Assembly: GCA_016198185.1 (NCBI GenBank)
Contig: JACQJD010000046.1
Location: forward strand, 9,242 to 73,241
DNA from: Deltaproteobacteria bacterium
Lineage (GTDB): Bacteria; Bdellovibrionota; JACOXK01; 2-02-FULL-40-11
Direction: 5' to 3'
Length of the DNA: 64,000 bases
Part shown: in pieces, positions 12,558-35,676 of the stretch
How positions within the stretch are numbered: position 1 is the first letter of the stretch
Layout: every line of letters begins with the position of its first letter
Translations under genes and position numbers: made by a program
The notes under the pieces: generated by a model
Databases searched by the model: none
The model's input: the letters and a program-made list of their open reading frames with translations, nothing else
What the model was told of the DNA's origin: nothing

Positions 12558-12645
12558 GGTGTTCGCGTAGCGCGCGGTGTGGCGGCCCAGGACGCGTGCT
12601 ACGCGAACACAACCAAGTCCTTAGAAATATTGACTTTTTCTTTTC
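12558..12645 (+). repeat. Hairpin element A (type-1 arm / core / type-1 arm / type-1 tail)
   Basis: ggtgttcgcgtagcgcgc - ggtgtggcggcccaggacgcg - tgctacgcgaacac, then the tail aaccaagtccttagaaatattgactttttcttttc. Confidence 0.7.
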
Positions 12646-12706
12646 AACTCTCTTATGAGCCATTATATTTACTGACACGAAATTATTCTTTTGTTAATTT
12701 TCACAT

Positions 12707-13510
12707 GTGGCTGGAATAAAATTTCCAAAAATTAAACTACCGAAACTAAAGTGGCCGGAAAAACCACGTCAAAAAACATCGAAAAAGACATCGTCAAAAG
12801 AAAAGAAAGTACATCCTTGGAGACTCTGCCCACTGGGCCAACATTGGGTGCGAACTCATCCCATGCACGTGCCTCCAAGCAAGAAAAATCCTGCAGGCTC
12901 TGTTACCTCTCGTAAAGAACATTGCGCAAGAAATCCAACAGGTAAAGATCAACTCTATCCCGACGAAATTCTTGAAATGACAGATAGACATTTTTCTAAA
13001 GCCACAGAACTCCCCTGCCCTTTTAATTTAGGATTTTCAAAAGGGAATGATTATGACTTATTAATTGCGGGATGGACACAATACTGGAATGAGATTCTTA
13101 AGTCTGAGATTCCCCTGGGAAAAAATCTGGTTAAAGCTTTGATCGCAAGTGAATCTGGCTTTGATCCCAAAATTTTAGCAAATAAAAAAGATTCTAATAG
13201 TGCTCGCGGACTGATGTAAATCACCAATGCCACGCGAAAAATATTAGGGAATGAAAAGGGCGAACTTAAAGAACATTATATTACTGTCACTAAGGAAGAT
13301 CTCAATAATCCAAATATAAATATATGCACCGGCATACGTTGGCTCTTTCATAAACAAAAATTGGCTTCAGCGAGATTAAGGCGAAATGCCTCATGGGAAG
13401 AGACTATTTTTGAATACAAAGGTGGCAGAAGCACTTCTTCATCTCGGGCCAATAAGTTAATGGACAAGTTTCGAGAATGTCTCGTAAAGTTTGAGATGTG
13501 TGTAAAAAAA
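12707..13510 (+). pseudogene. SLT-domain lytic transglycosylase disrupted by one in-frame TAA
   Basis: 'ALIASESGFDPKILANKKDSNSARGLM*ITNAT...NPNINICTGIRWL' is an SLT signature (catalytic ES..., GLMQ). TAA at 13217-13219 occupies the Q (CAA) position of GLMQ. The frame continues to 13510. Confidence 0.65.
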
Positions 13511-14373
13511 TAAAAAAATATTTTTTATTCTTTGGTTTTATTTTAAGTATTTTGCTGACCAGCGATACGGCCAATCTATTCAAGGTTGTTTACAAAGGAG
13601 ATCCGTTGTGTCAGGAAAATACAATATTGATAGAACAAAAGCATGACCATGGTTATGACATCACCGTCTCAAGAGCCGAAGACTGGATATGTCAATCCAT
13701 CGATATCAAAAAAAATGGAAAATTACTTTTCCATAATGAAGAAATTGGCGGTTACTATTTCTTAAGTGATAACTTCGAAGAACATGGCAACCCATTCTTT
13801 TTTTTACCCGGTAATATCAATCCCCATTTTGTATTTTCCAAATGGACAGGGGGCGCCCATTGCTGCTATTCCCTTCATATTTTTTCATTGGGTCAAGATT
13901 TTCGAGAAGTAGCCGCAATTGAGGGTGGAAACTCCCAACCCATTCTTAAAGACCTCGATGGAGATCACATTCCAGAAATTGAAGTTTTAGATGATTTTTT
14001 AGCCTACCTTTTTTCAAGTTTTGCCACCTCAGCTTACGGGGCTGTCATACTGAAATATTCTAATGGAAAATATTATGTAGCAGCAGACATTATGAAAAAA
14101 CCGCGACCCCATTCCAATCTCTGGAAATCTAAAATTTATTCTTGGAAAAATGACTTACGTAAAAAAGGTCCAGAATGGCCTCCCCCGTCTCTCATCCAAA
14201 CCATGACAGATTTAATATTTACAGGAAATAAAAAAGTAGCTTTCGATCTTATTCATTCGATTTGGCCACCCGAGGTTTCTGGAAAAAATGACTTTCTATC
14301 TGAGTATGAAAAAGCATTAGCACAGTCCAATTTTTACCCAGAATTTGAAAAGAAACTTAAGCTGTTACAATAA
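13498..14373 (+). CDS. Hypothetical secreted protein ('gene A' family, the intact copy)
   Basis: 291 aa with GTG start and N-terminal hydrophobic signal. The C-terminal 45 aa recur as remnants at 9826 and 34667. Confidence 0.45.
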   Translation: MCKKIKKYFLFFGFILSILLTSDTANLFKVVYKGDPLCQENTILIEQKHDHGYDITVSRAEDWICQSIDIKKNGKLLFHNEEIGGYYFLSDNFEEHGNPFFFLPGNINPHFVFSKWTGGAHCCYSLHIFSLGQDFREVAAIEGGNSQPILKDLDGDHIPEIEVLDDFLAYLFSSFATSAYGAVILKYSNGKYYVAADIMKKPRPHSNLWKSKIYSWKNDLRKKGPEWPPPSLIQTMTDLIFTGNKKVAFDLIHSIWPPEVSGKNDFLSEYEKALAQSNFYPEFEKKLKLLQ

Positions 14374-14451
14374 TCCAAACCATGGTTCCGCAGAAAGATC
14401 TCCTAGAAATATTTTTCTATCTTCTTCATCTGCGATTTTCTCTCCTAATAA

Positions 14452-14826
14452 TTAAGCACGATTTTTGAGCTCTTTGGCCTCTTTAAAATTTTTTAATAGT
14501 GCACTCGAGCGAGCCAATACTTCCCATTTATAAGCCTCATCAAAATCTTTTTTATCGGGGGATTCATCTGTGTATTTTTCACAGAGTTTTGCATGCTGCA
14601 ATGCCAAATTCGATTCACGCAAATGACAACAGATGCGACTTATTAACCAATGCCCTCTAGCCAAATGGAGTGCAGTTCCTCCACATTTTTTCCACAAATA
14701 AAAAGAGGCATAGGCAGATGCAAGCATTTCAAGATCTTCACCTAGATTCAACTCTTTCTTTTGAAGATAATTCCAAACCTGGTTATTGGCTTCTATGGCA
14801 AGTTTTTTTATTTCAGCGTTTTCCAA
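14452..14826 (-). CDS. Hypothetical protein
   Basis: 124 aa ORF with no recognisable motif. Lies between 'gene A' and hairpin element B. Confidence 0.35.
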   Translation of the reverse strand: MENAEIKKLAIEANNQVWNYLQKKELNLGEDLEMLASAYASFYLWKKCGGTALHLARGHWLISRICCHLRESNLALQHAKLCEKYTDESPDKKDFDEAYKWEVLARSSALLKNFKEAKELKNRA

Positions 14827-14854
14827 TACAATTTTTCCTTATTGTGAAACCTAG

Positions 14855-14941
14855 CATTTCGACCAGCGCGCGGTGTGGCGGCCCAGGACGCGCGCTACGC
14901 GAACACCACCAGGTCCTTAGAAATATTGACTTTTTCTTATC
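14855..14941 (+). repeat. Hairpin element B (type-2 left arm / core / type-1 right arm)
   Basis: gcatttcgaccagcgcgc - ggtgtggcggcccaggacgcg - cgctacgcgaacacc - accaggtccttagaaatattgactttttcttatc. Confidence 0.7.
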
Positions 14942-14953
14942 AACACCTCACTT

Positions 14954-16123
14954 TTACTTCAGTAAATAATCCTTATAGAAATCCAAGATCGGTAAAACTT
15001 TAATTCGTTGATCTATTTTTCTGGCCTTATCAAAAAGACCGATAACCAAAGCCTCTTTGCATGAATATTTTTCTAAAAAAGATTTTAATCCATTTAAATC
15101 TTTTGGATGAAGCGTTGAAGAAAATTTAAACTCACATGCCAAAAGCCCCTGAGGCGATTCCCAAACCAAATCCACTTCTACGCCTCCGTGTGTACGCCAA
15201 TAATACAATTCCCCTTTTTTCTTTTGATAATGTAACTGCTTAATAATTTCCAAAATCATGACATTTTCAAATAGACGCCCTTCATCAATTGGTTTCTGTG
15301 CTAAAGCTTGCGCAACCCCTACATCAAAAAAATAAAATTTATGCCCCGTAAAAAGTCGTTCACGTGCTTTTTTTAAGTATGGATCTAGGCGGTGAACAAT
15401 GAGTGTATCCTCTAAAATTTCATAATAACTTTTAATGGAGGGGGGACTTAGACCCACATCTCGTCCCAATGTAGAATATTGAATAAGCTGACCTAATTCT
15501 TCTGCAGCCAATGATAAAAAATGAACAAACGCAGCTCAATTTCGAGTATTGGCTTCGGCCTCTATTTCTTCTTTTAAATAAATATCTGTGTAATATTTTA
15601 GTTCCTCCTCTGGCTTTTCGGTACGAATAACCCCTGGTAAAAGCCCCTCCTTAAAAACCCTTCTTAATGCCTCAAATCCAACATTATTCTTTTCCAGTAA
15701 ACCTAACTCCACAAAAGATAATGGAAATAATTTCGCGCTGTGAATCCGACCTGGGAGTAAATTTACTTTTTTTTGTCTTAATTTCCTTGCGGAAGATCCT
15801 GTAATGAGCGGAATCAAAGCATTTTTATGCTTATCTAGTAAAACTTGAAGATCATCCAATAGCTCTGGAAATTTTTGAATTTCATCAAGAAAAAGATAAA
15901 GGAATTTATGCTTGTCTAATGCCGCCTCTATTTCTTCTGAAAAAAGAGAAGCTTGTCTTTGCAGTCGTAAATATGTCGCTCGACTATTAAAATTGTAAGA
16001 AAGCACGTTCCCCTTTTCTTTTAAAAATTGCTCGATAAGGTACGTTTTACCTACCTGCCTAGGACCTAAAAGAAAAAACCCCTTCTTAAACCTTGAAATG
16101 TCAATCTGACGCTTAAAATCCAT
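14954..16123 (-). pseudogene. AAA+ ATPase (AAA_14 + DUF4143 type) interrupted by a single in-frame TGA
   Basis: Walker A 'LLGPRQVGKTYL' in the upstream part (15536..16123) and a DUF4143-like C-terminal part (14954..15511) lie in the same frame, separated only by TGA: ...EANTRN*AAFVHFLSLAAEELGQ. Confidence 0.65.
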
Positions 16124-16321
16124 ACTTTCATTTTACATAAGTAATTTAAAATATCAACTTGAATTATTTTACGGGAAATGGTTGACATTAGGCATTTATT
16201 AGGCTAACAAAGATTTTTATTGTAGATATTGAACAATATCCATGGGTGGTTCCATTTAGAGAAACAAAAACAGAAATCTTTTTAATTACAGCATTTCCTG
16301 ACAGAAGATTAAAGGAGGAAT

Positions 16322-16645
16322 TTGGTTATGAAAACTAAATTGACAATATATGAAAAACAAATTTCTAAAGATATTTCTGAAAAAAAATATCAATCTCTAC
16401 CAAAGTCTGTTCAAAAACAGTATGCTCAAATGGCAAAAGAAGATATTCAAAGAAGAAAAACGGTAAGAAAGGAAGCCAGAATTAACATCAGACTTGTCCC
16501 TGAGGAACTCGAATCACTCAAAGAAGCAGCAGAGTCAGAGGGAATTCCTTATCAAACGCTCGTTTCTAGTATTATTCATAAATATTTAACAGGTACTTTA
16601 ATTGATTTAAAAAATGCTGCCGCATTAAAAAAAATAATGAAATAA
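16322..16645 (+). CDS. BrnA-like ribbon-helix-helix antitoxin
   Basis: 'RINIRLVPEELESLKEAAESEGIPYQTLVSSIIHKYL' matches the BrnA/CopG antitoxin core. No BrnT partner is found upstream. Confidence 0.5.
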   Translation: MVMKTKLTIYEKQISKDISEKKYQSLPKSVQKQYAQMAKEDIQRRKTVRKEARINIRLVPEELESLKEAAESEGIPYQTLVSSIIHKYLTGTLIDLKNAAALKKIMK

Positions 16646-16649
16646 AAAC

Positions 16650-16790
16650 TAACAGCAGCTTACCTTTATTTGAAAGTTAATAATTGATCGACCTCCATTA
16701 AACTCTCTTTAAGTCTTTTATAAGACGACGCAGAAAAAATAGCATGCCCTATTCTACCTCAATAATCGACAGCCTCAGGAATAGGTTGAT
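16650..16790 (-). pseudogene. 3' fragment of an ATP-grasp paralogue
   Basis: Shares the ...cctattct(a/g)cctc(a/g)ataatcgacagcctcaggaataggtt... segment with the 3' end of the 21174..22403 ATP-grasp gene. Confidence 0.4.
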
Positions 16791-16794
16791 GCGG

Positions 16795-16890
16795 GGCAGA
16801 CAGATCTGCTATGAATTATACCTTCAAGCTACTACAACACGTAAGGGCGGAAAATGGCGCCCTCAAATGATCAAAAGAATACTTGATCGA
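16795..16890 (+). pseudogene. Last about 30 codons of a serine-recombinase-like gene (copy 1 remnant)
   Basis: RQICYELYLQATTTRKGGKWRPQMIKRILDRP*, matching the C-terminus of the 35583..36023 ORF. Confidence 0.4.
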
Positions 16891-16935
16891 CCATGATCGA
16901 TCTGTTGATTTCAGCAAGAAAAACGCGATATTGTT

Positions 16936-17101
16936 TTATTGATGAAAACCAAAGAAGAAAAACGCCCCAAAGATATTGCGTATTTGGATACAAACGTTAT
17001 CAGTTTTTATTTTGACACAAGACCCGCGATTCAATTGATGCGCGATGCCACTCGTCAGTGGTGGGAAGAGAAAAGCAACGCTTATTATTTGTGTACTTCC
17101 T
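16936..17101 (+). pseudogene. PIN-domain gene with internal deletion (copy 1)
   Basis: MKTKEEKRPKDIAYLDTNVISFYFDTRPAIQLMRDATRQWWEEKSNAYY... aligns to the N-terminus of 36046..36576 but stops after about 55 codons. Confidence 0.5.
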
Positions 17102-17119
17102 ATGCTTAGGAGAATGCAC

Positions 17120-17384
17120 GATGAAGACAAAAATAAAACCAAAAAAATTGGTCATGGGAAGACATGAAAATCCAGTTGACTTCTTTAGACGTGTAAGAAT
17201 GGCCATTATGGAAGAGTTTGATAACGATATTTATAAATATGGCGCCTATTTAAGAGAAAGAGAAAAAGAGCACAAAGACCGGTTGGTGGATGTCGAAAAA
17301 CTACGAAAGCTTGGAATTATCTCAACTCAAATTTACACAATATATTTTACACCACCATCTTTTCAGCATACGTTTATTGTTTGA
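17120..17384 (+). CDS. Small conserved partner protein of the PIN module (copy 1)
   Basis: ...PVDFFRRVRMAIMEEFDNDIYKYGAYLREREKEHKDRLVDVEKLRKLGIIS is about 80% identical to 36573..36794. Confidence 0.5.
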
Positions 17385-20300
17385 ATTCTTCTTGGAAATA
17401 TTTGAGTTTACTAGGCCAGATATAAGAAGATTCATAGGTACATCTGATTGTACGCGTACCATAGGTATAGGTGCGTTTATATACTTTTTTTCTTGCATAA
17501 CCAAAGTAGCATTCGCCATCTGTGGGTGTATCTTGTATGCTGATGACTCCATGGAGGGAGACAGTGGCTGGAACCTGTATATATCCTTCTGTGGCGATCT
17601 GAAGAGACAGCGCTGGAATTCCAAATTGAGAAACATCTATGGTTTGATATTCATCTCCATCGTACAAATACTCTGCGTATTCATATGTGCCGCCGCCGGA
17701 GGGATAAGAGAGTGTTCCTTTACAGACGTTTCTTGCTTTTAAAATTTTTAATGGGTGTCTTTCCCATGCGTCACAATCTAAGCACTCATGCCCTCCACCC
17801 GGTAGAAACTTATAGGTAACTGCGGTTGGCAATGGAGGCACAGCTTTCTGGTCGTTGTCTTCATAAAAATATCCTCCTCCAGATTCAAATTCTGCGCTTG
17901 CATAGGTGCAGGAATTTTTAGGTGAAAATGTCACATTAAATGGATTTTGTATGAGCGACTGTGTAATTTCTTGATCGGGCTCGGGTTGAGAAGATGTGGG
18001 GGGGGCAACCGTTGTTTCTTCCTGTTCTTCTTCTGCAGGTGCCTCTTCTTTACACTTGATTTTTAAATTTTTGATAATTTCCTGCGTTTCATTTGCACTT
18101 TCCCATAATGCCTGTGCTTTTAGGACAGGCAGCTTGGAAACGGAAAAGGTAGATTCCGAAAGTTCGGTATTACAGTTTATCTGTGTTGCTGCAAGAGCTT
18201 GATCCAAATTTTTACGTGCTTCAATCAAAGCTTGTTGTAAGTTTTCTCCAAGTGTTTTTATGTTTTCTCTCATCTGAGATTCTGCCGCTTGATAATCCTT
18301 TACAGAGCTCTCAAAGTTTTTAAGAGCTGGTGCATCTTTGTTGGTGCAGCCCATTCGCGTGTAAGTTTCTATTTCAGCATCTTCTCTCTGTATTCTTTTA
18401 GAGCACGTATCTGCATCAAACATTTCAATACAGGCCGCTTTCACAGAATCGTGCGCCATGTCTACTTTGAATTCTTGCATTTTACATTCTGACTTAAATT
18501 TATCATATTCTGTTTGAGCCTGTTTGAGATCTTCTTCAAATCCAAAGGTAATTTCTTTTTCCTTCTCGATATCCGTTTCGTATTGGTGTTGAAGCGTTTT
18601 TACGAAGTTTTCATATTCTTGTTTGTGCGCCAGACGTATATCCACAGAAAATTCTCGTCTACGTTGTATAGCGCCTTCTACTTCTTTAATTTTTGGATCT
18701 ATTTCATTGAGTTTACGTTTGGTATACTCTCTGAGAAGTGTTGATTCAATAATTAAGGTGCGAAGTTCAGCAGCTTTCGAATTGGTTTTACTCAAATTCT
18801 TTTCGAACGCTTTGATCATCTGATCATGAATGTCATCTACCATATTTTGCAGGCTGCCTAATCCGAGACCCGCACCAATACCTCCTAATGTACTGATATG
18901 ACCTTGAGCTTGCACTTTTACTTTTGCTGCCTTTAAGACAGCAATAAGTTTTAGAATGCCACTTGCGGCTTTTGTCCCAAAGAGTTTGGCCCATTTATCA
19001 TGTGAAAAGTTCAACAATGCGACAGCTTGATCTATCATTTTAGAGATAAATATAGGTTTGGCGGCAGCTACAACTATTACAGCTTTTGTTGCTCCTTCGG
19101 CAACCAACATCGAAATTTTAGGCATAATCGCGGCCACTGTGATAATCGCACTGATAGCGGTAGTGGCAGTGGTTATCGCTAAATAGTTTGTATCTTCAAA
19201 GGTTGTTCCATTTTTTAACATCCTTTCTTCTTTTTCTTCTAAAGATTTGAGCTCAGGAATTGCTGATATAAGATCCATCGATAGGGAGTGGTATAAATTT
19301 ACAATTCTTGATCTTAGTTTTGTGAGAGCAGACAAATCTTTGTATAATGTACAAGCATGTTCATCATTTTTGAGGGCTACTGTTTCGCAAACCGAATTTT
19401 CCTTCATCAAGCGGCCTTGTTGAGAAAAAATTTCTTGCATGGCCGTATTAATCTCAACAATCGTGTCTTCTACAAAATTATTATCTGCGTTTGCCATGGC
19501 TTCCTTAAAGTTCGCAACGGCCGCTTCACTTCCTTTAATTTCACCCTCTTCCAATAAAATATTAATAATGTTATTTGCAGATTTTATTTGTTTTTCTGTA
19601 AGTTCTGCGTTTGTCCCCAGAATATTTTCTTGTGCATATGCTTTCGAAATAAAAGGGGTCTTTAAGAAACGGCCTGAAGTCTGACTTTCTAGGAATCTTA
19701 TATGAACAGTTGGGGTTAAAATTAATGCCCCCGCGTTTAGGGGATTCTGCTCTACATCTTTAATATAAAATATAATCTGAGGGTCGGCCTGGATTTCGAA
19801 GTCTGGATAAAAAATGGCCACTTGATCGATGATCATATCTGCTGTTTGAGCTGTGGTATTGGGTGGAAGATACACAGTTTTATAAATAGCTTTGTCATAG
19901 GTATTTAAATCGATATCAGGAAGATTTAAAAAAGAAGCCGCTTCATTTAGAGATATATTTTTAAGCCCCAGCTGACCTTGAAAATTTAAAACCAGAACTC
20001 TTTTTTTTGTTTTCTGAAGAGGTTGAATGACAATGGGAGGTTGGATGCCATTTTGGTTAGGCCACATTAAACTTTTAAACACCGCATCGTTTTTAAGATC
20101 TACAAAATATCGCCAATAATAGTAAAGATTGTCAATTTCTTGTGGTGTGAGTGTTTGGAAAAAATGGGGTTTTAAAATATTTAAATAATCTTTAAAATTA
20201 ATGACGCCATCAGCATTGCGATCCAAAATGCCTTGCTGTGTAGGTAAGTTTTTGGACACAGTTTCTAATGTATTTACTAGCTGTGTTTGTTCATCTTCAG

Positions 20301-20766
20301 AAAGAGGCGTAAAATTTTCTAGATTGTTTATATCTAAATCATTCATTTCTGAAATCTTCTTTTGAATATTTTCTGAAATATGTTTTTGAAAAAAGGAAGT
20401 TGTATCAAAAAAGGTTCCCACGGCCAGACCGTTTCCGAAAATTTTCTGAATCAAATATTCACGTTCAGGGGTTGTAAATGTTTCCCCTTTATCTGTTAAA
20501 TATTTATCGATGAGTATATTTGCTTGATCTCGTGTCAATGAATCGGTTTGGGATGGAAAGTACTTTTTAAGATCCTTAAAAGAGAGAGTTTGTATTTCTA
20601 TTATTGATTCTTGAAGTTTTTCCTGATCCAGTTCAGAGGGTACAATTTGTGTTTCTTGAGTGGGAGAAGTTTGTGTTACGGATGAGTCACCCCCTCCGCC
20701 TCCACCGCCGCCGCATGCAGTGATAAAGACACAGCCAGCCCCAATCAAAAAGGATTTTTTTAACAT
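17374..20766 (-). CDS. Large lipoprotein (about 1130 aa) with coiled-coil regions, a central hydrophobic helical hairpin and a Cys-rich C-terminal domain
   Basis: Lipobox ...LIGAGCVFITAC followed by a G8 linker. Hydrophobic hairpin 'ITTATTAISAIITVAAIMPKISMLVAEGATKAVIVVAAAKPIFI'. Long charged heptad-like stretches. The C-terminus has many Cys and GGG motifs. Confidence 0.6.
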   Translation of the reverse strand: MLKKSFLIGAGCVFITACGGGGGGGGDSSVTQTSPTQETQIVPSELDQEKLQESIIEIQTLSFKDLKKYFPSQTDSLTRDQANILIDKYLTDKGETFTTPEREYLIQKIFGNGLAVGTFFDTTSFFQKHISENIQKKISEMNDLDINNLENFTPLSEDEQTQLVNTLETVSKNLPTQQGILDRNADGVINFKDYLNILKPHFFQTLTPQEIDNLYYYWRYFVDLKNDAVFKSLMWPNQNGIQPPIVIQPLQKTKKRVLVLNFQGQLGLKNISLNEAASFLNLPDIDLNTYDKAIYKTVYLPPNTTAQTADMIIDQVAIFYPDFEIQADPQIIFYIKDVEQNPLNAGALILTPTVHIRFLESQTSGRFLKTPFISKAYAQENILGTNAELTEKQIKSANNIINILLEEGEIKGSEAAVANFKEAMANADNNFVEDTIVEINTAMQEIFSQQGRLMKENSVCETVALKNDEHACTLYKDLSALTKLRSRIVNLYHSLSMDLISAIPELKSLEEKEERMLKNGTTFEDTNYLAITTATTAISAIITVAAIMPKISMLVAEGATKAVIVVAAAKPIFISKMIDQAVALLNFSHDKWAKLFGTKAASGILKLIAVLKAAKVKVQAQGHISTLGGIGAGLGLGSLQNMVDDIHDQMIKAFEKNLSKTNSKAAELRTLIIESTLLREYTKRKLNEIDPKIKEVEGAIQRRREFSVDIRLAHKQEYENFVKTLQHQYETDIEKEKEITFGFEEDLKQAQTEYDKFKSECKMQEFKVDMAHDSVKAACIEMFDADTCSKRIQREDAEIETYTRMGCTNKDAPALKNFESSVKDYQAAESQMRENIKTLGENLQQALIEARKNLDQALAATQINCNTELSESTFSVSKLPVLKAQALWESANETQEIIKNLKIKCKEEAPAEEEQEETTVAPPTSSQPEPDQEITQSLIQNPFNVTFSPKNSCTYASAEFESGGGYFYEDNDQKAVPPLPTAVTYKFLPGGGHECLDCDAWERHPLKILKARNVCKGTLSYPSGGGTYEYAEYLYDGDEYQTIDVSQFGIPALSLQIATEGYIQVPATVSLHGVISIQDTPTDGECYFGYARKKVYKRTYTYGTRTIRCTYESSYIWPSKLKYFQEEFKQ

Positions 20767-21044
20767 ATTTTGAATCTTTTCAGTATACGTTCCGGTTTGC
20801 CATCCCCGCGAAGGGCGAGGATCTTTTGTTCTTTGTTTTAATTTTACCATAGATTTCGAAGAAGAAAGAGTGTTTTAAATTAAAATTGGATGAGAAAATT
20901 TTTGCAGTTTATCTCCTCCCTATTTAAGTATTTTTTCTAATTCTCGGCAGTCTATTTTACGGTTATTCGTGTAAGTCAAAATAAGATAGGCTTAGGGTAC
21001 ACATTCAAAGAACCCACAAAATCCATCGATTGGGATCATAAGCT

Positions 21045-21143
21045 GGCTTTGGTCAGGTGTTCGCGTAGCGCGCGGTGTGGCGGCCCAAGACGCGCGCTGG
21101 TCGAAATCTCTAAGGCCGTGTTAAATCTACGTTTTTTCTTCTC
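21045..21143 (+). repeat. Hairpin element C (type-1 left arm / core variant 'caaga' / type-2 right arm and tail)
   Basis: gctttggtcaggtgttcgcgtagcgcgc - ggtgtggcggcccaagacgcg - cgctggtcgaaatctctaaggccgtgttaaatctacgttttttcttctc. Confidence 0.7.
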
Positions 21144-21173
21144 GGCGCTCTAGATAACGCTGATCTACTGCAT

Positions 21174-27863: not shown

Positions 27864-27912
27864 AAACATTGACTTTTTCTTTTCCACCCCTCTCGATGAT
27901 CTGGCTCTTTTG
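27834..27912 (+). repeat. Hairpin element F (right half only: type-1 arm and tail, fused to the MFS 3' end)
   Basis: cacgctacgcgaacaccaccaaatccttagaaacattgactttttcttttccacccctctcgatgatctggctcttttgg. The tail matches element E. Confidence 0.6.
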
Positions 27913-28024
27913 GACTTTTTCTTATCCTCCACGCGTCATCTTTGCTGAAATCGGGGGTTTATGACATACTAAATCAGTGATCAATGCTTCTATGCGTTTA
28001 TGAACAAAAAAATGAGAGGGTCAT

Positions 28025-29416
28025 TTGAAAAATAAAATTGTTGTGGTTCTTTCCATTTTTCTTCCCTTCGTTTTCTTCCTAGGTCATCTGCCAGAGTTAT
28101 CTATTCCTCTCGCATTTGCCAAAGAAAACCATTTTCTGATTTCCAAGGAAGAATTTCTCGCAAGTGATTTTTCGAAACATTTTAAAAAACGGGAATTCGG
28201 CAAAGCTCTAAATACTTTGGATAAGCTTATCAAAAAATATCCGAATGATCCGCTGATCCTGCGGTATCGCGCACTGACGCTCGACAGGCTGAGTCGTCGC
28301 AAGGAAGCCATCGCCGAATATAAGAAAATCCTTTCCAAAAATCCGAATCATGTTCCCACACGTCTTTTTTTAGGATTGGCTTATGCCCGCGACAAGCAGC
28401 CTGATCAGGCTGTCAAGGAGCTTCGCTGGGTGGTAAAACACAGCACATCAGAAAAATACCGCCATTGGGCCCAAGCACAGCTTACGCGTGTTAAGCGTGG
28501 CGGCAAGAAGGTGGAAAAACCCGTCAGAAAGAAACCTTATCTTCTAGGCAAGATCGGTGCCTATTATGACAGCAACCCTCTTCTTATTCCCAATGCAGAG
28601 AATCTTTCATCCCAGTCAAAAAAAGACGGCATGGATTTTCCGATTAATTTAAATGTTGGATATCCTTTGATACTCAAAAAAGAATTCCGGCTAGATGTGA
28701 TCTATGTAGGACAAACGCTCCTACATGATAAAGGGACAGATGATGTGGATTTTACGTCTCAAGGTGTCGCGCTAGATGCCAAAAAACGTGTGTTTTTTGG
28801 AGACCGCGCGGCTCTCATCGGCGGACGATATGATTTTAAGGCAAATTTTCTGAGGAGCGATCTCTTTGCTGTCATCAATCGCTTTCTTTTGAGCATGGAC
28901 ACTTCCTTTTGGAAAAAAACAAGAACAAGATTTTATGGGAGGTTGTCTTATTCCAATTATGGACCTGATGGCTCCAACCCACCGGTGACTTCGCGTGACG
29001 GCTTTCGCGAAGGCTTGGGAATCGTTCAAACATTTTTCCTCGCCAAAGACTTTAGAACGCATTTTTTCGCGAAACAGGAAATCAGTCTTGCCAATACACG
29101 GGGCGAGAATTTTAACCGTAAAGGGTCGCTCACCCGGCTTGGTATTCACGCGCCTTTGGATTTTCTTGGCCCGATAGACTTAGACGGCTCAACGGGATTC
29201 GACTATGGTACGTATCCTGAGTTTTCGTCTCTTTCGGTGTTGGATCTCAATGAACGTCGGGACATGCGTACGGACGCGTACACCGCGCTGACCTACCACT
29301 GGAAACCGAACTTTGCGACAAGAGGCCTTTACCGTTACATCAATTCTAACAATGATAACGATTTCTACGAGCGCGACCGGCATATTGCCGGTATGGAGGT
29401 TATATTCTCTCTATGA
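28025..29416 (+). CDS. TPR-repeat protein with signal peptide and a C-terminal beta-rich region
   Basis: N-terminal signal, then TPR-like repeats (ALNTLDKLIKKYPNDPLILRYRALTL... AIAEYKKILSKNPNHVPTRLFLGLAYAR). Confidence 0.45.
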   Translation: MKNKIVVVLSIFLPFVFFLGHLPELSIPLAFAKENHFLISKEEFLASDFSKHFKKREFGKALNTLDKLIKKYPNDPLILRYRALTLDRLSRRKEAIAEYKKILSKNPNHVPTRLFLGLAYARDKQPDQAVKELRWVVKHSTSEKYRHWAQAQLTRVKRGGKKVEKPVRKKPYLLGKIGAYYDSNPLLIPNAENLSSQSKKDGMDFPINLNVGYPLILKKEFRLDVIYVGQTLLHDKGTDDVDFTSQGVALDAKKRVFFGDRAALIGGRYDFKANFLRSDLFAVINRFLLSMDTSFWKKTRTRFYGRLSYSNYGPDGSNPPVTSRDGFREGLGIVQTFFLAKDFRTHFFAKQEISLANTRGENFNRKGSLTRLGIHAPLDFLGPIDLDGSTGFDYGTYPEFSSLSVLDLNERRDMRTDAYTALTYHWKPNFATRGLYRYINSNNDNDFYERDRHIAGMEVIFSL

Positions 29417-30189
29417 AAAACCGAATTTCAGTTTATTTCATCACATTTTTTTTTACTATCGGGCTAACATCATTAACTTTTGCCAATAATGTGGATCCAA
29501 GAGAAACGGCAATAGACTTGGCTGTCGGCGGAATGGAAGAAGGAAGTCGTCCTCTGTCATCTGAAAGCGGAGAAGATAAAATTCCAGGAGCCAATTTAAG
29601 TCCGGGCATGGACACGTCTGTGAAGGCTGTGGTCCCGGGACCAGGTGCTTCTGCCTTGGGTTCGGCGTCGGACACCGGTACGCCTGGCGGCGCGCCAGAA
29701 CAAGAGCCAGTCTCCGAACCCTCAGAATCAAGCGGAGCAAATTTGGATGATGTGACAAGTGGACTCGAAGCAGGCACAACCATTGAAACCGGCCCTTCGG
29801 ATGAAGGGGTTTCCGAGCCAACGGCTCCGGATAACGACAGAAGCATCATCGAGGCTGATGCCACCGTAGATACAACGGGCGGCACGCCCACAGTTGATAC
29901 TGATGTCTCGCTTGATACAAGCGCCGAAGGTGGTCTCATTGACGCCGATGCGGCCACAACCGCCGATATAGTTGACCAGGAGCTCACATCCGATGCGGGC
30001 GTACAGATTGATATGGGAGACAGCACCACCCTTTTGGAATCAACGCTTGGAAACGAGATCGGTACAAGCACCGCCCCCCCTGATGCTGAGGCTGACGCCG
30101 GCCTTGAAGCAGATGTCGAAGGCACGGGTTCTGGCGACGATGTGGCCGCAGATCCGGCTGACGGGCTCTCGGCTACGCCATCTCTTTAA
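29413..30189 (+). CDS. Acidic low-complexity secreted protein (D/T/G/S/E-rich), on a GC-richer patch
   Basis: Signal peptide MKNRISVYFITFFFTIGLTSLTFA; ATGA overlap with the TPR gene. Confidence 0.4.
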   Translation: MKNRISVYFITFFFTIGLTSLTFANNVDPRETAIDLAVGGMEEGSRPLSSESGEDKIPGANLSPGMDTSVKAVVPGPGASALGSASDTGTPGGAPEQEPVSEPSESSGANLDDVTSGLEAGTTIETGPSDEGVSEPTAPDNDRSIIEADATVDTTGGTPTVDTDVSLDTSAEGGLIDADAATTADIVDQELTSDAGVQIDMGDSTTLLESTLGNEIGTSTAPPDAEADAGLEADVEGTGSGDDVAADPADGLSATPSL

Positions 30190-30624
30190 TGGCAAAAAAC
30201 TGTGGGGAATACTGATCAACATTAGATTTAATTGTCCATACAGTGCTCTTAAAATTTCACTGTTCTATATCGGTGCCAGCTTACCTGCTCAAACGTCCAA
30301 ATGCAAAAGTGGCTCGACACCATTTACAAGAGATAATCACACTTTTGGGCTGCCAACTCTGGCAGCCCATTCCCACCTTTTTTAAAAGGTTTTTTCATTC
30401 CACGCCCTTTATTTTTTTTCAAAAAAGACACTCTTTCACCGTAAATTGACACCCTAGAATTTATCGTTACTTATTTTTTCAGCTTAAAGTTAAGATGTAA
30501 CCTTGAATATCGCTCCCATTCCAAAGTCTAGGCAGATCGTTTGGAAAATTAAAGTACGTGTAACAACCTTCAAGAAGATAGTTATTGAGAAAAATATTTT
30601 AAAGAGAGTGAGCCAAAACAATAA

Positions 30625-31629
30625 TCAAATTCTGATTTCTTTTTCTAACCACGGAATATGCTCATGCTTCCGCTTCCACCACAAATCCTCCCAAATATAA
30701 TGTACAGCAAGCTGTTTGTATTTCCCGTATCGCTCAAAATGTTTGAGAAGTTGTGAGACTGGAACAGGATTTTCAGGATTCCGATTGAAGAAAAGTTTGG
30801 AGTAAATTTTCTGTTCCCACGGCGAAACATGGTTGAAAAAGTCCAAATGGTGAAAAACGTCAAAGAGCAAATACCATACAGTTGCAGGGCCAACGCCATA
30901 CAATTTCAGCAATTCTGTCATTTGTGCTTCGCGGTCTTGTTTTCTCAATTTGTATTCGTCAATTAGGCCCTGCGAAAAATTATCATCCATTTTTCTAATT
31001 GATTTAGCGCGATAACCAACTTTGAGAGTGCGTAAATCATCTATGCTTACATTTTGCAATCTTCCCGGACTCCAAAAACACCAGAGTTTTTTGTCGTCAA
31101 ATTCCAGCAAAGTCCCGTAATTTTCCAAAAGTGCCTTGAACATTTGAACGGATCGACGCACCGAAGCATTTTGCAAGACAATCCCAATAATCAAATACTC
31201 ATAAAGTGAACTTGGATGTCCGGGGCGCATACCGCGCCATTTTTTAAAAATAGGGCCAAGAACGGAATCTTTGCTAAAGCTTTTGTAGAAATCCTCAAGG
31301 TCGAGATTAAAGTTATAGCGATATTGAATTTCTTCGATGAGTGAGTCTACGAATTCTGCTAATAATTTCTCCTTTGCGTAAACCTTAATCTCGATAAGCG
31401 GATTTGCGATAGTTCCTTTGCTGGAAAATTTGATACCAAGACATTTTTTCCGCCAATTCCAAGTTTGCCAGCGAATGCCTGGCTCCCAGTAATTATCGCC
31501 TGAAGTGAAATGGTCGGGTTTATGAAAAGTGGGGTCAAAAGCAAATGGTTTCGTCGGTTTTACTTGTGCTGTTTTTTGAAGTTTAAGCTTGATTGTTTTT
31601 TTCATTTTTTTACTGGATAAATCCGCCAA
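30625..31629 (-). CDS. HhH-GPD superfamily DNA glycosylase (OGG/AlkA-like)
   Basis: Helix-hairpin-helix 'LLKLYGVGPATVWYLLFDVFHHLD' with a downstream Asp, plus an N-terminal beta-domain-like region; 334 aa. Confidence 0.5.
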   Translation of the reverse strand: MADLSSKKMKKTIKLKLQKTAQVKPTKPFAFDPTFHKPDHFTSGDNYWEPGIRWQTWNWRKKCLGIKFSSKGTIANPLIEIKVYAKEKLLAEFVDSLIEEIQYRYNFNLDLEDFYKSFSKDSVLGPIFKKWRGMRPGHPSSLYEYLIIGIVLQNASVRRSVQMFKALLENYGTLLEFDDKKLWCFWSPGRLQNVSIDDLRTLKVGYRAKSIRKMDDNFSQGLIDEYKLRKQDREAQMTELLKLYGVGPATVWYLLFDVFHHLDFFNHVSPWEQKIYSKLFFNRNPENPVPVSQLLKHFERYGKYKQLAVHYIWEDLWWKRKHEHIPWLEKEIRI

Positions 31630-31790
31630 TAAGAATAGAGGATAAACTAATCAGAAAACCAAAATCGTGCATTGAAGTACAATACCATAACCAAAAAATG
31701 TTTCAATTGATCCCAATTGCAAAAATAACGAAAATATAGGCGTATGAAACAAACTTGACACAAATATTATTTTGAGTCAAAATAGTTTCA

Positions 31791-32366
31791 ATGAAGAAAT
31801 CTATACCTAAAAAGCTTTTAAATAGGCCCTTCTTAGTGAAAGAGGCTTTGGCTTGTGGCTTAAGCAAGGTCTATCTTACTCGCATGGTCAAATCTGGAGC
31901 GCTGGAACGCCTAAGCCGGGGGGTTTATCAAGTGAGTGGAGTTGATCAAGGCACCCCTGAAGAACTTTATAGAGTTGCCACACTTCGGTGCGGAATGCCG
32001 TCAGCGATATGTCTTTTGTCAGCACTAGACTATTACCATGTGACAGATCAAATTCCTAAAAAGACATGGGTCCTTGTTCCTCAACGTAAACGTGTATCAT
32101 CAAAGGATTTAAAGCTTATTCGATCTCGTAATCCCCTATGGAAAATTGGGATTGTAAAAACAAAAGACTACTGGATTACAAACCTAGAGCGTACTCTTGT
32201 TGAGTGTCTGATATACAAGAGATGGATCGGCAGCCAAGTGGCACTTCTTGCACTGAAACAGGCACTATCAGAAAAAAAAGTGAAACTGAGCAATGTATAC
32301 GATGTGGCTAAAAAGATGGGTGTCCAACACAGAATTTATTCTTATATTGAGGTATTGACGTCATGA
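31791..32366 (+). CDS. AbiEi-like antitoxin (pair 2)
   Basis: 'FLVKEALACGLSKVYLTRMVKSGALERLSRGVY' winged-helix region; 4-bp overlap with the downstream DUF1814 gene. Confidence 0.65.
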   Translation: MKKSIPKKLLNRPFLVKEALACGLSKVYLTRMVKSGALERLSRGVYQVSGVDQGTPEELYRVATLRCGMPSAICLLSALDYYHVTDQIPKKTWVLVPQRKRVSSKDLKLIRSRNPLWKIGIVKTKDYWITNLERTLVECLIYKRWIGSQVALLALKQALSEKKVKLSNVYDVAKKMGVQHRIYSYIEVLTS

Positions 32367-33220
32367 ATCGCGAAAAGGAAAAACAAATACATCGTTCTAT
32401 GAAAACCCTTGTGAAAAAAGATCCTCGTTTCAATATTAACGAGGTTCGAATTATCGTTGCCTTAGAACGTGCCATTGCTCGGTTATCACAAAATAAAGAT
32501 TTAGCTGAGCATCTTATATTTAAGGGAGGCTTTGTACTTCTCAAAAATTATGAGAGTCTGCGTTTCACAAGGGATGCGGATGCCTTGGCCACGGCCATTT
32601 CCAAAGATAAATTAAGAGATTTTGTCTGTAAGGCTTTAGAGAGGGATTTGGATGACGGTCTGTGGTTTGGTGATGTTCAAGTTCAAGAACTAACCGAACA
32701 GGGAGAGTATGGGGCTTATCGTTTTGATTTTGCTTTCCAAATCGGAGAACCTGATCTTAAAAAGATTCATAAACTCTCACGAATTCACATTGATGTTGGT
32801 TTTAGCGATAAGCTCCCAACAAAGCCACAGAATCAACTCATGCCTTCGGTTTTAGAATATGAAGAACCCATTACCTGGAAAATCTATCCTATCGAATATA
32901 TTGTTGCTGAAAAAATTCAGACCTTCTTTGATCGAGGTTCTACAAACTCTCGGGCAAAAGATATTTACGATTTAATTTATCTTTTTCCACGTTGTCAAAA
33001 TCAATATGAGCTTATACGAGCCATTGAAAATACATTTAAGAACCGGGGAAGCATTCTTCCAGAATCATTCGTGAATGAGGCCAGTCAGCTCGATATAACG
33101 TTTCTCACTCATGCTTGGCCAGGCGTGCGTATTCTTGAAAATAAGCTAGACTTTAACGAAACATGGAAATTGTTGATAGAATTTTTCAGAAAAATAGATC
33201 TCATGCGAACGGGAAAATAA
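32363..33220 (+). CDS. AbiEii-like nucleotidyltransferase toxin (pair 2, DUF1814)
   Basis: 'LIFKGGFVLLKNY...RFTRDADAL' DUF1814 signature; 285 aa. Confidence 0.7.
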   Translation: MNREKEKQIHRSMKTLVKKDPRFNINEVRIIVALERAIARLSQNKDLAEHLIFKGGFVLLKNYESLRFTRDADALATAISKDKLRDFVCKALERDLDDGLWFGDVQVQELTEQGEYGAYRFDFAFQIGEPDLKKIHKLSRIHIDVGFSDKLPTKPQNQLMPSVLEYEEPITWKIYPIEYIVAEKIQTFFDRGSTNSRAKDIYDLIYLFPRCQNQYELIRAIENTFKNRGSILPESFVNEASQLDITFLTHAWPGVRILENKLDFNETWKLLIEFFRKIDLMRTGK

Positions 33221-33317
33221 CATAAGAAAAAACATCGTTAACAACTCCTGATTTTGTGGAAAATTACCGAAATTGGAGAGCCTGCTTCCACTGAAAATTC
33301 AGACTGTGGAATGATGA

Positions 33318-33462
33318 AGTTCAATCTAACTATCCTTCCCCCCTCCCAAAAAATCTCAAAAAAGCCCCTGTTTCTACCAGCCAGACTATGGCAATCGGCC
33401 TCGTATTTAAGCCCTTGCTGTTGGCCCATGGAGACCGAATTTTTCGATATGTACCTATGAGG
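33318..33462 (+). repeat. About 140 bp 'P' element (copy 2)
   Basis: About 90% identical to 12385..12530, again followed by a hairpin element. Confidence 0.55.
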
Positions 33463-33473
33463 GTAACCTATTG

Positions 33474-33572
33474 CTTTGGTCAGGTGTTCGCGTAGCGCGC
33501 GGTGTGGCGGCCCAGGACGCGCGCTGGTCGAAATCTCTAAGGCCGCGTTAAATCTACGTTTTTTCTTCTCAA
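33474..33572 (+). repeat. Hairpin element D (type-1 left arm / core / type-2 right arm and tail)
   Basis: Near-identical to element C (...gctttggtcaggtgttcgcgtagcgcgcggtgtggcggcccaggacgcgcgctggtcgaaatctctaaggccgcgttaaatctacg...). Confidence 0.7.
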
Positions 33573-34043: not shown

Positions 34044-34671
34044 CTTCCTTCCCTATTAAATAAACTTTCTTACCTAAGGCAACCTGTCTAACGAAATTAT
34101 CAGACTTCTTAAATTTATCCAAAAACTCTTTTTCAGAATACAAATGGGCGTTGATTTCTCGCCCTGTTTTTTCTGATATCTTTTGCGTCGTTGATGACAA
34201 AAGCTTTGCCCCTACAGAGCCTATAATCATGAGATCGATATCACTTTGGGGCATATCTTTACCTGTCGCCAATGAGCCAAATATAAATGAAAACCTAACC
34301 TTCCCCAACTTCATCAGATGCTCTTGAATAAGTCCCCCAATGGCTTCTGTTTTAAGGATGATTTTCTTTAATTCATTAAAAAGCATGAAGTCTTGGTTCG
34401 CCTTAAAATAGACCCTATTCCCAGACCGGGTAGAGGCTAGAAAACCGATACTGACAAGCTTTTCAATCTCTTGCTGAATAGCCCGAATCGGAACCCCTAA
34501 AAGGCGCTCCAGCTCTCTTTGATAAAAGGATTTTTCAGGAGACATGACAAACAAGGACAAAAGCTTAACCCTCGTTTTTGAAGAAAATAATGTATCTAAC
34601 GCAGTGCTCATATATGTATATATTTTATAGTCAATTGTATATAAAACATAGTCATTGTCAAGGGGAATCAA
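34018..34671 (-). CDS. Minimal nucleotidyltransferase (MntA-like) with an N-terminal wHTH
   Basis: 'FIFGSLATGKDMPQSDIDLMIIG' is the MNT GS..D.D motif. The N-terminal 'KTRVKLLSLFVMSPEKSFYQRELERLLGVP' is an ArsR/MarR-like wHTH. Confidence 0.6.
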   Translation of the reverse strand: MIPLDNDYVLYTIDYKIYTYMSTALDTLFSSKTRVKLLSLFVMSPEKSFYQRELERLLGVPIRAIQQEIEKLVSIGFLASTRSGNRVYFKANQDFMLFNELKKIILKTEAIGGLIQEHLMKLGKVRFSFIFGSLATGKDMPQSDIDLMIIGSVGAKLLSSTTQKISEKTGREINAHLYSEKEFLDKFKKSDNFVRQVALGKKVYLIGKEDEFKRFIK

Positions 34672-34745
34672 GACGCGCTATGAAGTATTAAACAATCGAA
34701 TTTTTATCCAGAGCTTGAAAAACAACTTAGGCTGTCACAATAACA
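34667..34745 (+). pseudogene. Third remnant of the 'gene A' C-terminus
   Basis: ...aaacaatcgaatttttatccagagcttgaaaaacaacttaggctgtcacaataa matches the end of 13498..14373 but is frame-disrupted. Confidence 0.45.
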
Positions 34746-35545
34746 TCGTAGGCTTTGGAATGTTGTTCAATGCGATAGGCTTGTTTACCAAAAAATTCCA
34801 TCAATGTGCATTCGGTATTGTTTTTGAAATATTCGAGATTTTCTGTCTTTAAGACCACTGCCAAAAAAGGAGACTCTTTTTTGTAAGAAACATCTCCCAA
34901 TGTTGCACGCGCTGTATCAGTGATCCAGATTTTACTTTGATCATGAAGCGTTATCTCGCCATGATGATTTTTACGCTCAAGAAGCTCTTCTAAAATAGGA
35001 CCCAATTTTTGTGACCGATCCCATAAAACAATACCTAAAACATGGGTGCACTCATTGTCATGTTTTAAGCTTAAACGACTTTTTCGCTCTCCCAAAACGG
35101 GGTCCGTTTCATACTCTGTAAACCAAATTTCAATCCCAGGATACAAAGGTTTCCTAAAAAAAATAAAATTCCAACCCGGGAGAGATGCCGTCGAATTATT
35201 TTTCCAATCATAGTTTTTATGTACGTATTGAATATCGTATTTCTTAAAAGAGGCTTCTTTTTTAGTGAAGAAATTCTTTAGATTTTTGTTCACTCGAAAA
35301 GACACGCCTGTCGGATATGGCTGTTGGCCAATTTCTTTTTGCGTTTTCAAAAAAACGTCATCATTTTTAATTTCCACAAATTCAAGATATTTCTTATCCC
35401 CGATGGCTAAAAATCGACACAGTTGCCCACCTTCGTGTTCAACGACATGTTCAGACTGAGTAGAAAATCCTAATTTTTTAAAACGCTCATACTGTTCACA
35501 TGATATCCATCGTGAAAATGCATGGTCATATCCAAATTCAAACAT
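34727..35545 (-). CDS. Hypothetical protein ('gene B' family, the intact copy)
   Basis: 272 aa. The C-terminus ...RIEQHSKAYDVIVTA recurs at 9948..10025. Convergent 3' overlap with 'gene A' remnants. Confidence 0.45.
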   Translation of the reverse strand: MFEFGYDHAFSRWISCEQYERFKKLGFSTQSEHVVEHEGGQLCRFLAIGDKKYLEFVEIKNDDVFLKTQKEIGQQPYPTGVSFRVNKNLKNFFTKKEASFKKYDIQYVHKNYDWKNNSTASLPGWNFIFFRKPLYPGIEIWFTEYETDPVLGERKSRLSLKHDNECTHVLGIVLWDRSQKLGPILEELLERKNHHGEITLHDQSKIWITDTARATLGDVSYKKESPFLAVVLKTENLEYFKNNTECTLMEFFGKQAYRIEQHSKAYDVIVTA

Positions 35546-35559
35546 AAAGTCAGTTTCTC

Positions 35560-35676
35560 CAGGTGTTCGCGTAGCGCGCGGTGTGGCGGCCCAGGACGCG
35601 CGCTACGCGAACACCACCAGGTTCTTAGAAACATTGACTTTTTCTTTTCCACCCCTCTCGATGATCCAGCTCTTTT
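35560..35676 (+). repeat. Hairpin element E (type-1 / core / type-1, long tail)
   Basis: aggtgttcgcgtagcgcgc - ggtgtggcggcccaggacgcg - cgctacgcgaacacc - accaggttcttagaaacattgactttttcttttccacccctctcgatgatccagctcttttgg. Confidence 0.7.

Follow-up and report, generated by a model that had tools for sequence, protein, structure and literature searches.

The locus and its repeat elements

We analysed 64,000 nucleotides of DNA from Deltaproteobacteria bacterium (positions 9,242 to 73,241 of contig JACQJD010000046.1, assembly GCA_016198185.1), a stretch that we call the window, in which a family of co-oriented repeat elements punctuates a cluster of defence and toxin-antitoxin genes. The source is a metagenome-assembled genome (MAG) whose nearest relatives are Bdellovibrionota MAGs with protein identities of at most 73%. 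The flanks are ordinary chromosome, with truA, a DEAD-box helicase gene, tig-clpP-clpX-lon, two tRNA genes and ino1, and the elements sit in a stretch of 36–41% GC as against about 42–47% around it. This low-GC stretch carries two AbiE pairs, a PDC-M05 pair, a split PDC-S01 ATPase gene, a BrnA-like antitoxin gene and an open reading frame (ORF) for a PIN-like protein, along with two distant ATP-grasp/major facilitator superfamily (MFS) pairs and many scrambled fragments. Sites are spaced 2.1–6.8 kb apart, and the segments between them hold several genes each, on both strands. An earlier description made from the letters alone (the sequence-only reading) had placed toxin-antitoxin systems, pseudogene fragments and permuted duplicates in these segments, and they do carry toxin-antitoxin and defence genes, pseudogenes and scrambled duplicates.

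Repeat finding and a profile search recover five full elements of ~98 nt (A–E) and one right half (F), all within 12.5–35.7 kb (Table 1); the profile finds no copy beyond these six in the 64-kb window. The core, GGTGTGGCGGCCCAGGACGCG, occurs exactly at 12576, 14872, 33501 and 35580 and with one mismatch at 21074, all five on the + strand, and shuffled windows yielded 0 matches. Both searches thus bear out six copies on one strand, as first described. The further claim that all copies have the core in common applies to A–E (C with its one mismatch) but not to F, which keeps only the core's last bases. By hand calculation, the same orientation of the six copies has p ~0.03 and their clustering p ~0.03, each taken alone.

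Each full element has 18–27-bp arms around an 18-bp asymmetric centre. The type 1 left arm (L1) is GGTGTTCGCGTAGCGCGC, and R1 is its reverse complement, with 18/18 positions mirrored; L2 is (GC)ATTTCGACCAGCGCGC and R2 is GCGCGCTGGTCGAAATCT, mirrored at 16/18. L1 and L2 differ at six inner-arm positions, and the right arms differ correspondingly, in mirror fashion, so that hybrid sites, which join a type 1 arm to a type 2 arm, are mirrored at 12/18. The left/right combinations are 1/1 in A and E, 2/1 in B, 1/2 in C and D and –/1 in F, and 2/2 is absent among the window copies. These are the combinations first reported, except that the left arm of B reads GCATTTCG rather than GAGATTTCG. The constant region spans 32 bp; taken as 13-6-13 with GCGGCC in the middle (10/13 inverted), it would have the geometry usual for tyrosine recombinase core sites.

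Folding supports the description of the elements as hairpins for part of the set: the 1/1 copies A and E form a long hairpin (z = -5.9 and -8.2), whereas the hybrids retain just a GC apex of ~9 bp. Searches of Rfam at gathering and at permissive thresholds gave generic hairpin noise only for the elements, and consensus scans called an intrinsic terminator at none of them. A single promoter-like call touches an element, a weak one (9/12) at 12641–12669 that overlaps the end of the A tail. Element F overlaps the final 10 codons and stop codon of the MFS ORF 26649–27863, confirming the fusion to the 3' end of that gene that had been noted earlier.

Table 1. Repeat elements, their flanks and the segments and genes that adjoin them, in window coordinates
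Feature	Position	Strand	Description
Flank X copy 1	12399..12547	+	~150 nt left of L1 in A; homologous to 33320–33472; homology stops in the core
Element A	12548..12645	+	L1 / core / R1 (2 substitutions in R1) and tail 1; palindromic, candidate attP-type junction
Element B	14844..14941	+	Hybrid L2 / core / R1 and tail 1; sole L2 arm of the window
Segment B to C	14942..21045	.	6.2 kb between reciprocal hybrids 2/1 and 1/2; candidate single integrated unit
HTH-PIN module copy 2	16723..17330	+	Degenerate counterpart of 35850–36794, a module made up of the 3' part of the HTH gene, the PIN-like gene and a 73-aa ORF
Element C	21046..21143	+	Hybrid L1 / core (one G to A) / R2 and tail 2
Element F	27830..27885	+	Lacks the left half; consists of the end of the core, R1 and tail 1
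Flank Y copy 2	27886..27920	+	After F; remnant of the HTH gene's first codons; 32/36 identical to 35650–35685
Segment F to D	27886..33472	.	5.6 kb; R1-tail-Y to X-L1; candidate integrated unit
Flank X copy 2	33320..33472	+	Left of element D; Logan contigs break here
Element D	33473..33570	+	Hybrid L1 / core / R2 and tail 2
Element E	35552..35649	+	L1 / core / R1 and tail 1; perfect 19-bp stem; directly 5' of the HTH gene
Two-HTH gene	35615..36023	+	'Recombinase-like HTH' protein without catalytic domain; frameshifted

Exchange at the constant centre

Comparison of the flanks shows where the homology between copies ends. A and D are alike on the left (128/156 in the flank, 43/46 in L1 plus core) and unrelated on the right, and the reverse holds for E and F, which are alike in R1 plus tail (48/52) and in the right flank (32/36) and unrelated on the left. 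C and D have the element alone in common, 98% identical over 98 nt between unrelated flanks. A 6.2-kb segment lies between B (2/1) and C (1/2), two hybrids of reciprocal type, which is the pattern that a circle with a type 1 site leaves on inserting into a type 2 site (a Campbell insertion). The segment from F to D starts with R1-tail-Y and ends with X-L1, the halves seen separately at E and A, and 11382–11448, left of A, matches the interior of that segment.

The window thus has what tyrosine-recombinase elements and cis-mobilizable elements (CIMEs) have, namely direct-repeat junctions with a common core at which flank homology breaks. In an 8-mer scan, flank X and the tails had no convincing repeated motifs of the arm type in common. 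The flank breaks at A/D and E/F, the reciprocal hybrids and the junctions at the dyad centre in other genomes (below) uphold the earlier proposal of exchange at the core between sites, and these alignments show several exchanges of DNA at the constant centre. Taken alone, the in-window patterns would fit site-specific and homologous exchange alike.

A two-helix-turn-helix gene beside element E

ORF 35661–36023 (120 aa, annotated 'recombinase family protein') begins 11 nt after E and matches PF07508 'Recombinase' at 26.7 bits, at profile positions 2–51 only, the first half. It had been taken for a fragment of a truncated serine recombinase. The position and the PF07508 match stand, but the ORF has no catalytic domain and its C-terminus is not truncated. 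An exhaustive HMMER search of 1.84 billion representatives returned 195 relatives, mostly of 100–235 aa, in which the match runs to their own C-terminus. The closest, P0122 (114 aa, 49% identity) and P0124 (121 aa, 40%), are complete small proteins with an N-terminal helix-turn-helix (HTH) and a 'recombinase-like HTH' and no Resolvase domain; the closest relatives are 110–160 aa long and end at the same residue as the window ORF. A Resolvase domain appears only in family members of ~222 aa (P0154, P0156). Because the closest relatives are complete without it, ORF 35661–36023 is not a truncated serine integrase. A word-indexed protein search with the HTH ORF found itself only. By the look of this family, a small 'recombinase family protein' whose match covers just the first half of PF07508 would be a DNA-binding protein rather than a broken serine integrase, which makes the label an annotation trap.

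The N-terminal part of the gene (the frame of 35615–35725, ...FFFSTPLDDPALLGFLY...) is split by a frameshift from the annotated ORF. The translation of tail plus flank Y aligns with the N-termini of several homologues, for example P0126 (...RNLIYFFSTPIDNPSLLKSLY...), and the corresponding part of the window reads ...RNIDFFFSTPLDDPALLGFLY... in another frame than the annotated ORF. The HTH gene is therefore frameshifted, and tail 1 plus flank Y (35650–35685) form its 5' end; F and, more severely, A–D keep just its first bases. In the window the HTH gene is followed by the PIN-like ORF. We regard the two-HTH protein as probably an accessory factor that binds the site.

Half-sites beside homologous genes in other genomes

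Five foreign loci with homologues of the HTH gene, L007 (NCBI GCA_016193105.1), L008 and L010 (both Logan), L011 (JGI) and L012 (ENA), all have a homologue of the right half-site just 5' of that gene, starting from CGGCC at the dyad centre. The half-sites begin ATGGCGGCCCAGACCGCGCGCT... in L007, GACGGCCCAGAAC... in L008, GTGGCGGCCTCGGCCGCGCGCT... in L010, TTCGGCCCAGAG... in L011 and GTGGCGGCCGATCGGAAC... in L012. In an alignment of the first four with E, CGGCC and CGAAC are invariant and nothing leftward is conserved; L012 has TGGCGGCC with a shorter and divergent arm (GATCGGAAC). No left arm or palindrome is present at any of the five, and the left flanks are mutually unrelated: one is a glycosyltransferase gene, another the stop codon of an MscS gene, and a third a stretch after a BrnT gene that resembles the C-terminal end of a transposase (putative). 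In L011, positions ~325–365, just left of the half-site, hold a tRNA-like acceptor/T-arm motif on the complementary strand (TGGAGGTTGCCGTGATCGAACCTGTGACC), at which ARAGORN called no tRNA; if the motif is a tRNA remnant, some units would integrate at tRNA genes.

The correspondence holds in both directions. With nhmmer, a window-derived profile matched L007 at E = 1e-12, and a profile from the five foreign loci alone picks out the six window copies (E = 1e-10 to 1e-3), each on the + strand, with no further hit in the window. L009, the locus of the more distant HTH homologue P0125, has no such site upstream. As judged from these alignments, the right half-site and the HTH gene are a conserved unit end set beside unrelated DNA, with its boundary at the dyad centre. 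The arrangement has the look of an attL-type junction, which would be predicted neither by a free-standing repeat family nor by a simple operator.

Two fainter resemblances to the half-site were seen in the window. The first, at 38903–38933 (+), matches R1 at 15/18 arm positions and is non-significant in nhmmer (E = 0.2–5); it lies 65 nt from the 3' end of the tRNA-Asp gene and, if real, would be an old junction at the island edge. The second, at 61757–61776 (+), holds a 15-nt exact match, CCAGAACTCTATCAA, to the L007 R arm followed by loosely tail-like DNA, with a non-significant profile E value; the surrounding stretch of 59.8–64 kb has no ORF above 150 aa and an 18-bp tandem repeat (x4.7) at 62133–62216.

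A candidate linked recombinase

In L010 the gene right after the HTH gene matches tyrosine recombinases. Its ORF, cut by the contig end, scores 25 bits against Pfam Phage_integrase (cut-off 27.1) and matches PDB 4a8e, an archaeal/bacterial Xer-type (XerA/XerC-like) protein, at E = 4.7e-7 in an alignment that spans the box-I arginine region (...RDRLFISILSTSAMRVGEL...). The gene is unrelated to the window's PIN-like ORF, so what lies downstream of the HTH gene varies; in L008 a DUF4160 pair follows, in L011 the ~480 nt that come next contain no recombinase, and the contigs of L007 and L012 stop too close to the HTH gene to show what follows it. The one catalytic recombinase linked to the site family would thus be of the Xer-like tyrosine type, with L010 the single locus from which the class is read.

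In the window itself, tblastn found no remnant of an L010-type integrase. Among the window ORFs scanned with Pfam or NCBIfam (~9 kb of the source contig lies beyond the window), there was no recombinase of any class, transposase or RAYT domain; in particular, Phage_integrase, PF00239 Resolvase and Y1_Tnp had no match. PHROGs and NCBIfam applied to the unknown ORFs of the island revealed no hidden recombinase.

Interpretation and alternatives

We think that the elements are probably att-type junctions of small integrating units in a decayed, recombinase-less tandem array with defence and toxin-antitoxin cargo, formed by accretion of the CIME kind. One end of a unit would start at the core centre (between TGG and CGGCC), take in the R arm and enter the small two-HTH gene at its 5' end, and the other end would close with an L arm that is an inverted copy of the R arm. 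Units placed head to tail would then create the long L-core-R palindrome, attP-like, of A and E, and a meeting of two arm types would give the hybrid junctions B, C and D. The window would accordingly hold a tandem array of at least five units, carrying abortive-infection, toxin-antitoxin and candidate defence genes, without a recombinase and in decay, as the frameshifted HTH gene, the fragments and the truncated F indicate.

How such an array could arise can be sketched. A site-specific recombinase may cut in or beside TGGCGGCC, and repeated integration into existing junctions would build up the head-to-tail order. Autonomous units, to go by L010, would consist of the site, the HTH gene and then an Xer-like tyrosine recombinase gene, with the HTH protein binding the arms as an accessory factor. 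The array in the window may be a CIME-like fossil or may be mobilized in trans.

Several points weigh against this interpretation. The 30-bp identical centre might also allow rare homologous exchange, and repeats are spots at which a metagenome assembly may mis-join. The truncation of F lies 11 nt to the right of the crossover point proposed here, which makes F a deletion product rather than a clean junction. The order of site types (1/1, 2/1, 1/2, –/1, 1/2, 1/1) is unlike that of simple accretion (2/1, 1/1..., 1/2), so nested events or later rearrangements are needed and the exact history cannot be recovered. The tyrosine link comes from one short Logan contig with a partial ORF below the Pfam gathering cut-off. 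The source MAG stands without close relatives, and for a flanking gene the next homologues reach no more than 73% identity.

Absence from sequence collections counts against this interpretation as well. The exact core gave two chance hits in the genome contig collection (coding DNA of GC-rich genomes, no arms) and none in the metagenome and viral contig collections, and the skeleton TTCG-N3-AGCGCGC-N18-GCGCGCT-N3-CGAA is likewise absent from metagenome and viral contigs; these patterns proved too strict, since at the foreign half-sites the arms vary and the left arm is missing. Neither the element nor the 24.5-kb island had a BLAST match among plasmids. Synteny is not conserved in the nearest long contig (flanking gene 55% identical), and exact-protein look-ups of island genes returned short Logan contigs only, which end at repeat X.

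An origin as palindromic repeats of the repetitive extragenic palindromic (REP) or miniature inverted-repeat transposable element (MITE) kind is unlikely. Here the two arm types would be subfamilies, and the chimeras would have formed by homologous recombination across the 30-bp centre during segmental duplications. The region is full of scrambled duplicates, L1 has GTAG beside its GC stem as REPs do, another constant-centre hairpin family with co-varying arms exists in core DNA (834–904, 60181–60249), and exchange between type 1 and type 2 would be confined to the common centre under any mechanism; such repeats with homologous exchange might account for the in-window pattern taken alone. Yet the 41 kb of core DNA in the window contains zero copies, all copies are co-oriented, and no RAYT or transposase was found among the window ORFs scanned. 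Target-site duplications are not visible at the ends of the 98-nt elements, which are asymmetric with the tail on one side, and the hairpin is lost in the hybrids. A six-frame translated search of the element against 5.8 billion proteins gave no ORFs overlapping further copies. The chief point is that the right half, from the dyad centre, is kept beside an orthologous HTH gene in five loci whose left flanks are unrelated.

There is small likelihood that the palindrome is an operator of the two-HTH protein, autoregulating an HTH-toxin operon and spread with 5' gene fragments by duplication and deletion, with no dedicated recombinase. Antitoxin-type HTH proteins often bind palindromes upstream of their own genes. 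Tail plus flank Y is indeed the 5' end of the HTH gene, the PIN-like ORF comes after it in the window, and the association of site and gene is conserved. But the foreign loci have the right half only and no dyad, and the downstream partner is not conserved (the putative tyrosine recombinase in L010, the DUF4160 pair in L008). An operator would also leave unexplained the mirrored arm types with reciprocal hybrids around a segment, and the flank X that A and D have in common without an HTH gene; moreover, 18–27-bp arms around an 18-bp asymmetric centre are much larger than usual operators.

The sequence-only reading had favoured an integron-like or shufflon-like cassette system, possibly with a serine recombinase; an active platform of this kind driven by such an enzyme, of which the ORF after E would be a truncated copy, we now hold to be very improbable. 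Cassette-like segments do lie between co-oriented sites, the adjacent ORF matches PF07508, the ~222-aa members P0154 and P0156 join a Resolvase domain to this HTH, and the GG at the dyad centre is non-palindromic, like the crossover dinucleotide of serine recombinases. Against this, the ORF belongs to a stand-alone two-HTH family whose closest members are complete at 110–160 aa without a Resolvase domain, and no Resolvase domain was found in the window ORFs scanned with Pfam or NCBIfam; the sole linked catalytic gene found appears to be of the Xer-like tyrosine type. Both arm types hold TTCG/CGAA at equal distance from the centre, a spacing unlike the attP/attB geometry of large serine integrases. 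The platform also fails on its architecture: all sites are direct repeats with none inverted, which rules out a shufflon, and a strict integron is contradicted by the absence of IntI, attI and the attC signature and by multi-gene segments of 2–7 kb on both strands.

That mis-joins at repeats made the mosaic of arms and flanks is extremely improbable: the source is a MAG contig and the organism's Logan contigs end within repeat X, but the copies differ by point substitutions, the common flanks are just 82–90% identical and so are diverged paralogues rather than collapsed reads, hybrid 1/2 is found twice with different flanks, homologous half-sites occur in independent assemblies, and the 30-bp common centre is shorter than the final k-mers of usual assemblers.

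Our preferred interpretation stays with att-type junctions of small integrating units, as opposed to an integron, a shufflon or a REP family. More tentatively, the elements might represent a family of such units, not described before, that Bdellovibrionota-like and other uncultured bacteria carry and that functions for defence genes as integrons or dif modules do. Such a family would be marked by a long dyad site with a constant TGGCGGCC centre, a site-adjacent two-HTH accessory protein and an Xer-like tyrosine recombinase; its head-to-tail arrays would be exchangeable, with two arm specificities and one crossover sequence, so that the types could recombine.

Relation to known systems

The closest concept, by analogy, is the tandem accretion of integrative elements with integrase-less CIMEs, such as ICESt1 and its CIME in Streptococcus thermophilus (PMC5704250). 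As in CIME arrays, direct-repeat att sites bound adjacent segments, most segments lack integration genes with the junctions kept, inner junctions are attP-like or hybrid, and the cargo is accessory and defensive. Unlike in CIME arrays, the window sites are long dyads (18–27-bp arms, 18-bp asymmetric centre) that come in two mirrored types, the array has no anchor in the 3' end of a conserved gene, be it for a tRNA or not, and the site-adjacent gene encodes a two-HTH protein and not an integrase, with no autonomous partner in the window. What is distinctive here is the combination of long dyads of two mirrored types with a constant centre, a two-HTH gene at the site and the absence of a conserved target gene.

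Dehalococcoides ssrA islands and staphylococcal cassette chromosome composites, which use serine recombinases (PMC3146451), are also small tandem islands bounded by short direct repeats, with an integration module at one edge that is missing in some. The window differs in having no serine recombinase domain, and the catalytic gene linked to the site in a relative appears to be of the tyrosine class.

Most integron cassettes consist of one promoterless ORF that points the same way as attC, whereas the window segments are of 2–7 kb, multi-gene and on both strands, without intI, attI or Pc. The sites lack R''/R' boxes (RYYYAAC...GTTRRRY) and extrahelical bases: the arms read GTGTTCG...CGAACAC, with GTT before AAC, the reverse of the attC order, and the 1/1 stem is perfect, without bulges. 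Unlike in attC, the centre is constant and the arms vary, and exchange is at the apex instead of the base. The resemblance lies in co-oriented, structured palindromic sites between mobile modules, many of them toxin-antitoxin or defence modules, and in a recombinase that may act at a distance; sedentary chromosomal integrons store defence genes (bioRxiv 10.1101/2024.07.02.601686).

The Xer-dependent dif modules of Acinetobacter plasmids (PMC6449649, PMC13141974) are likewise small toxin-antitoxin or resistance modules, shuffled by a tyrosine recombinase encoded elsewhere, and the putative L010 enzyme is Xer-like. A pdif site, however, is 28 bp (11-6-11) and alternates in orientation, whereas the window sites are ~75–98 nt, in one orientation and unrelated in sequence. 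REPs and bacterial interspersed mosaic elements are, like our elements, GC-rich imperfect intergenic palindromes in modular combinations; the window copies differ in being clustered and co-oriented, without RAYT, and in a half-site kept beside a specific gene across genomes.

If the att-junction interpretation is right, the window offers a clean natural case of defence-island building, with units added serially at a common recombination site. The site architecture and its adjacent two-HTH protein would then stand outside current mobile-element catalogues (no Rfam, plasmid, phage or exact-pattern matches). The right half-site together with the HTH gene could serve as a search key for related units in metagenomes, including autonomous ones.

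Cargo, borders and further features

The B-to-C segment contains the split PDC-S01 ATPase pseudogene, the BrnA-like antitoxin gene, the HTH-PIN remnant and a gene for a 1158-aa protein. The ATPase, a PDC-S01-type candidate defence protein (AAA_14 plus DUF4143) at 14954–16123 (-), is broken into ORFs of 195 and 185 aa and is probably a pseudogene. The HTH-PIN remnant at 16723–17330 adjoins no site; its left side is joined to a 3'-end fragment of an ATP-grasp gene (16665–16798 resembles 21173–21306). Cargo of the F-to-D segment comprises genes for a tetratricopeptide repeat (TPR) protein and an acidic secreted protein, an ogg-like gene and AbiEi/AbiEii. The PDC-M05B partner at 33747–34043 is 98 aa long against a profile of ~146.

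Short repeats (23148–23358, 25252–25330) border the AbiEi/AbiEii pair at 23.4–25.0 kb, with CCCGAATTT-type motifs inverted around it (23158–23204 versus 25270–25316, 89%). A 21-nt identical string, CATCTTTGCTGAAATCGGGGG, occurs at 23208 and at 27937, the latter 50 nt past element F. On the left side, the 230-nt gap at 9797–10031 between the DEAD-box helicase gene and a saccharopine-dehydrogenase-like gene contains two island-gene fragments, the 3' ends of homologues of the 291-aa ORF 13498–14373 and the 272-aa ORF 34727–35545, so island debris reaches left of element A.

At the right border, the tRNA-Asp gene region (-), 38988–39160, has upstream an exact 23-nt duplicate of the gene's 5' end (39132–39154), and a tRNA D-arm-like fragment lies between gene and duplicate at ~39078–39105 (+); these pieces may be remnants of a rearranged tRNA cluster.

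A second hairpin family, unrelated to the core elements, has copies at 834–904 and 60181–60249 (+), 59 kb apart and in the same orientation in core-genome intergenic DNA. Its 22-bp arms show compensatory differences around a conserved asymmetric centre, GCTCGAA..CAATGCCGCC, and Rfam gave generic hairpin noise only. A perfect 39-bp inverted repeat with a 14-nt loop (50280–50371) lies between the divergent ORFs 49190–50194 (-) and 50492–51559 (+). Within the island, the 291-aa and 172-aa ORFs appear to encode secreted proteins.

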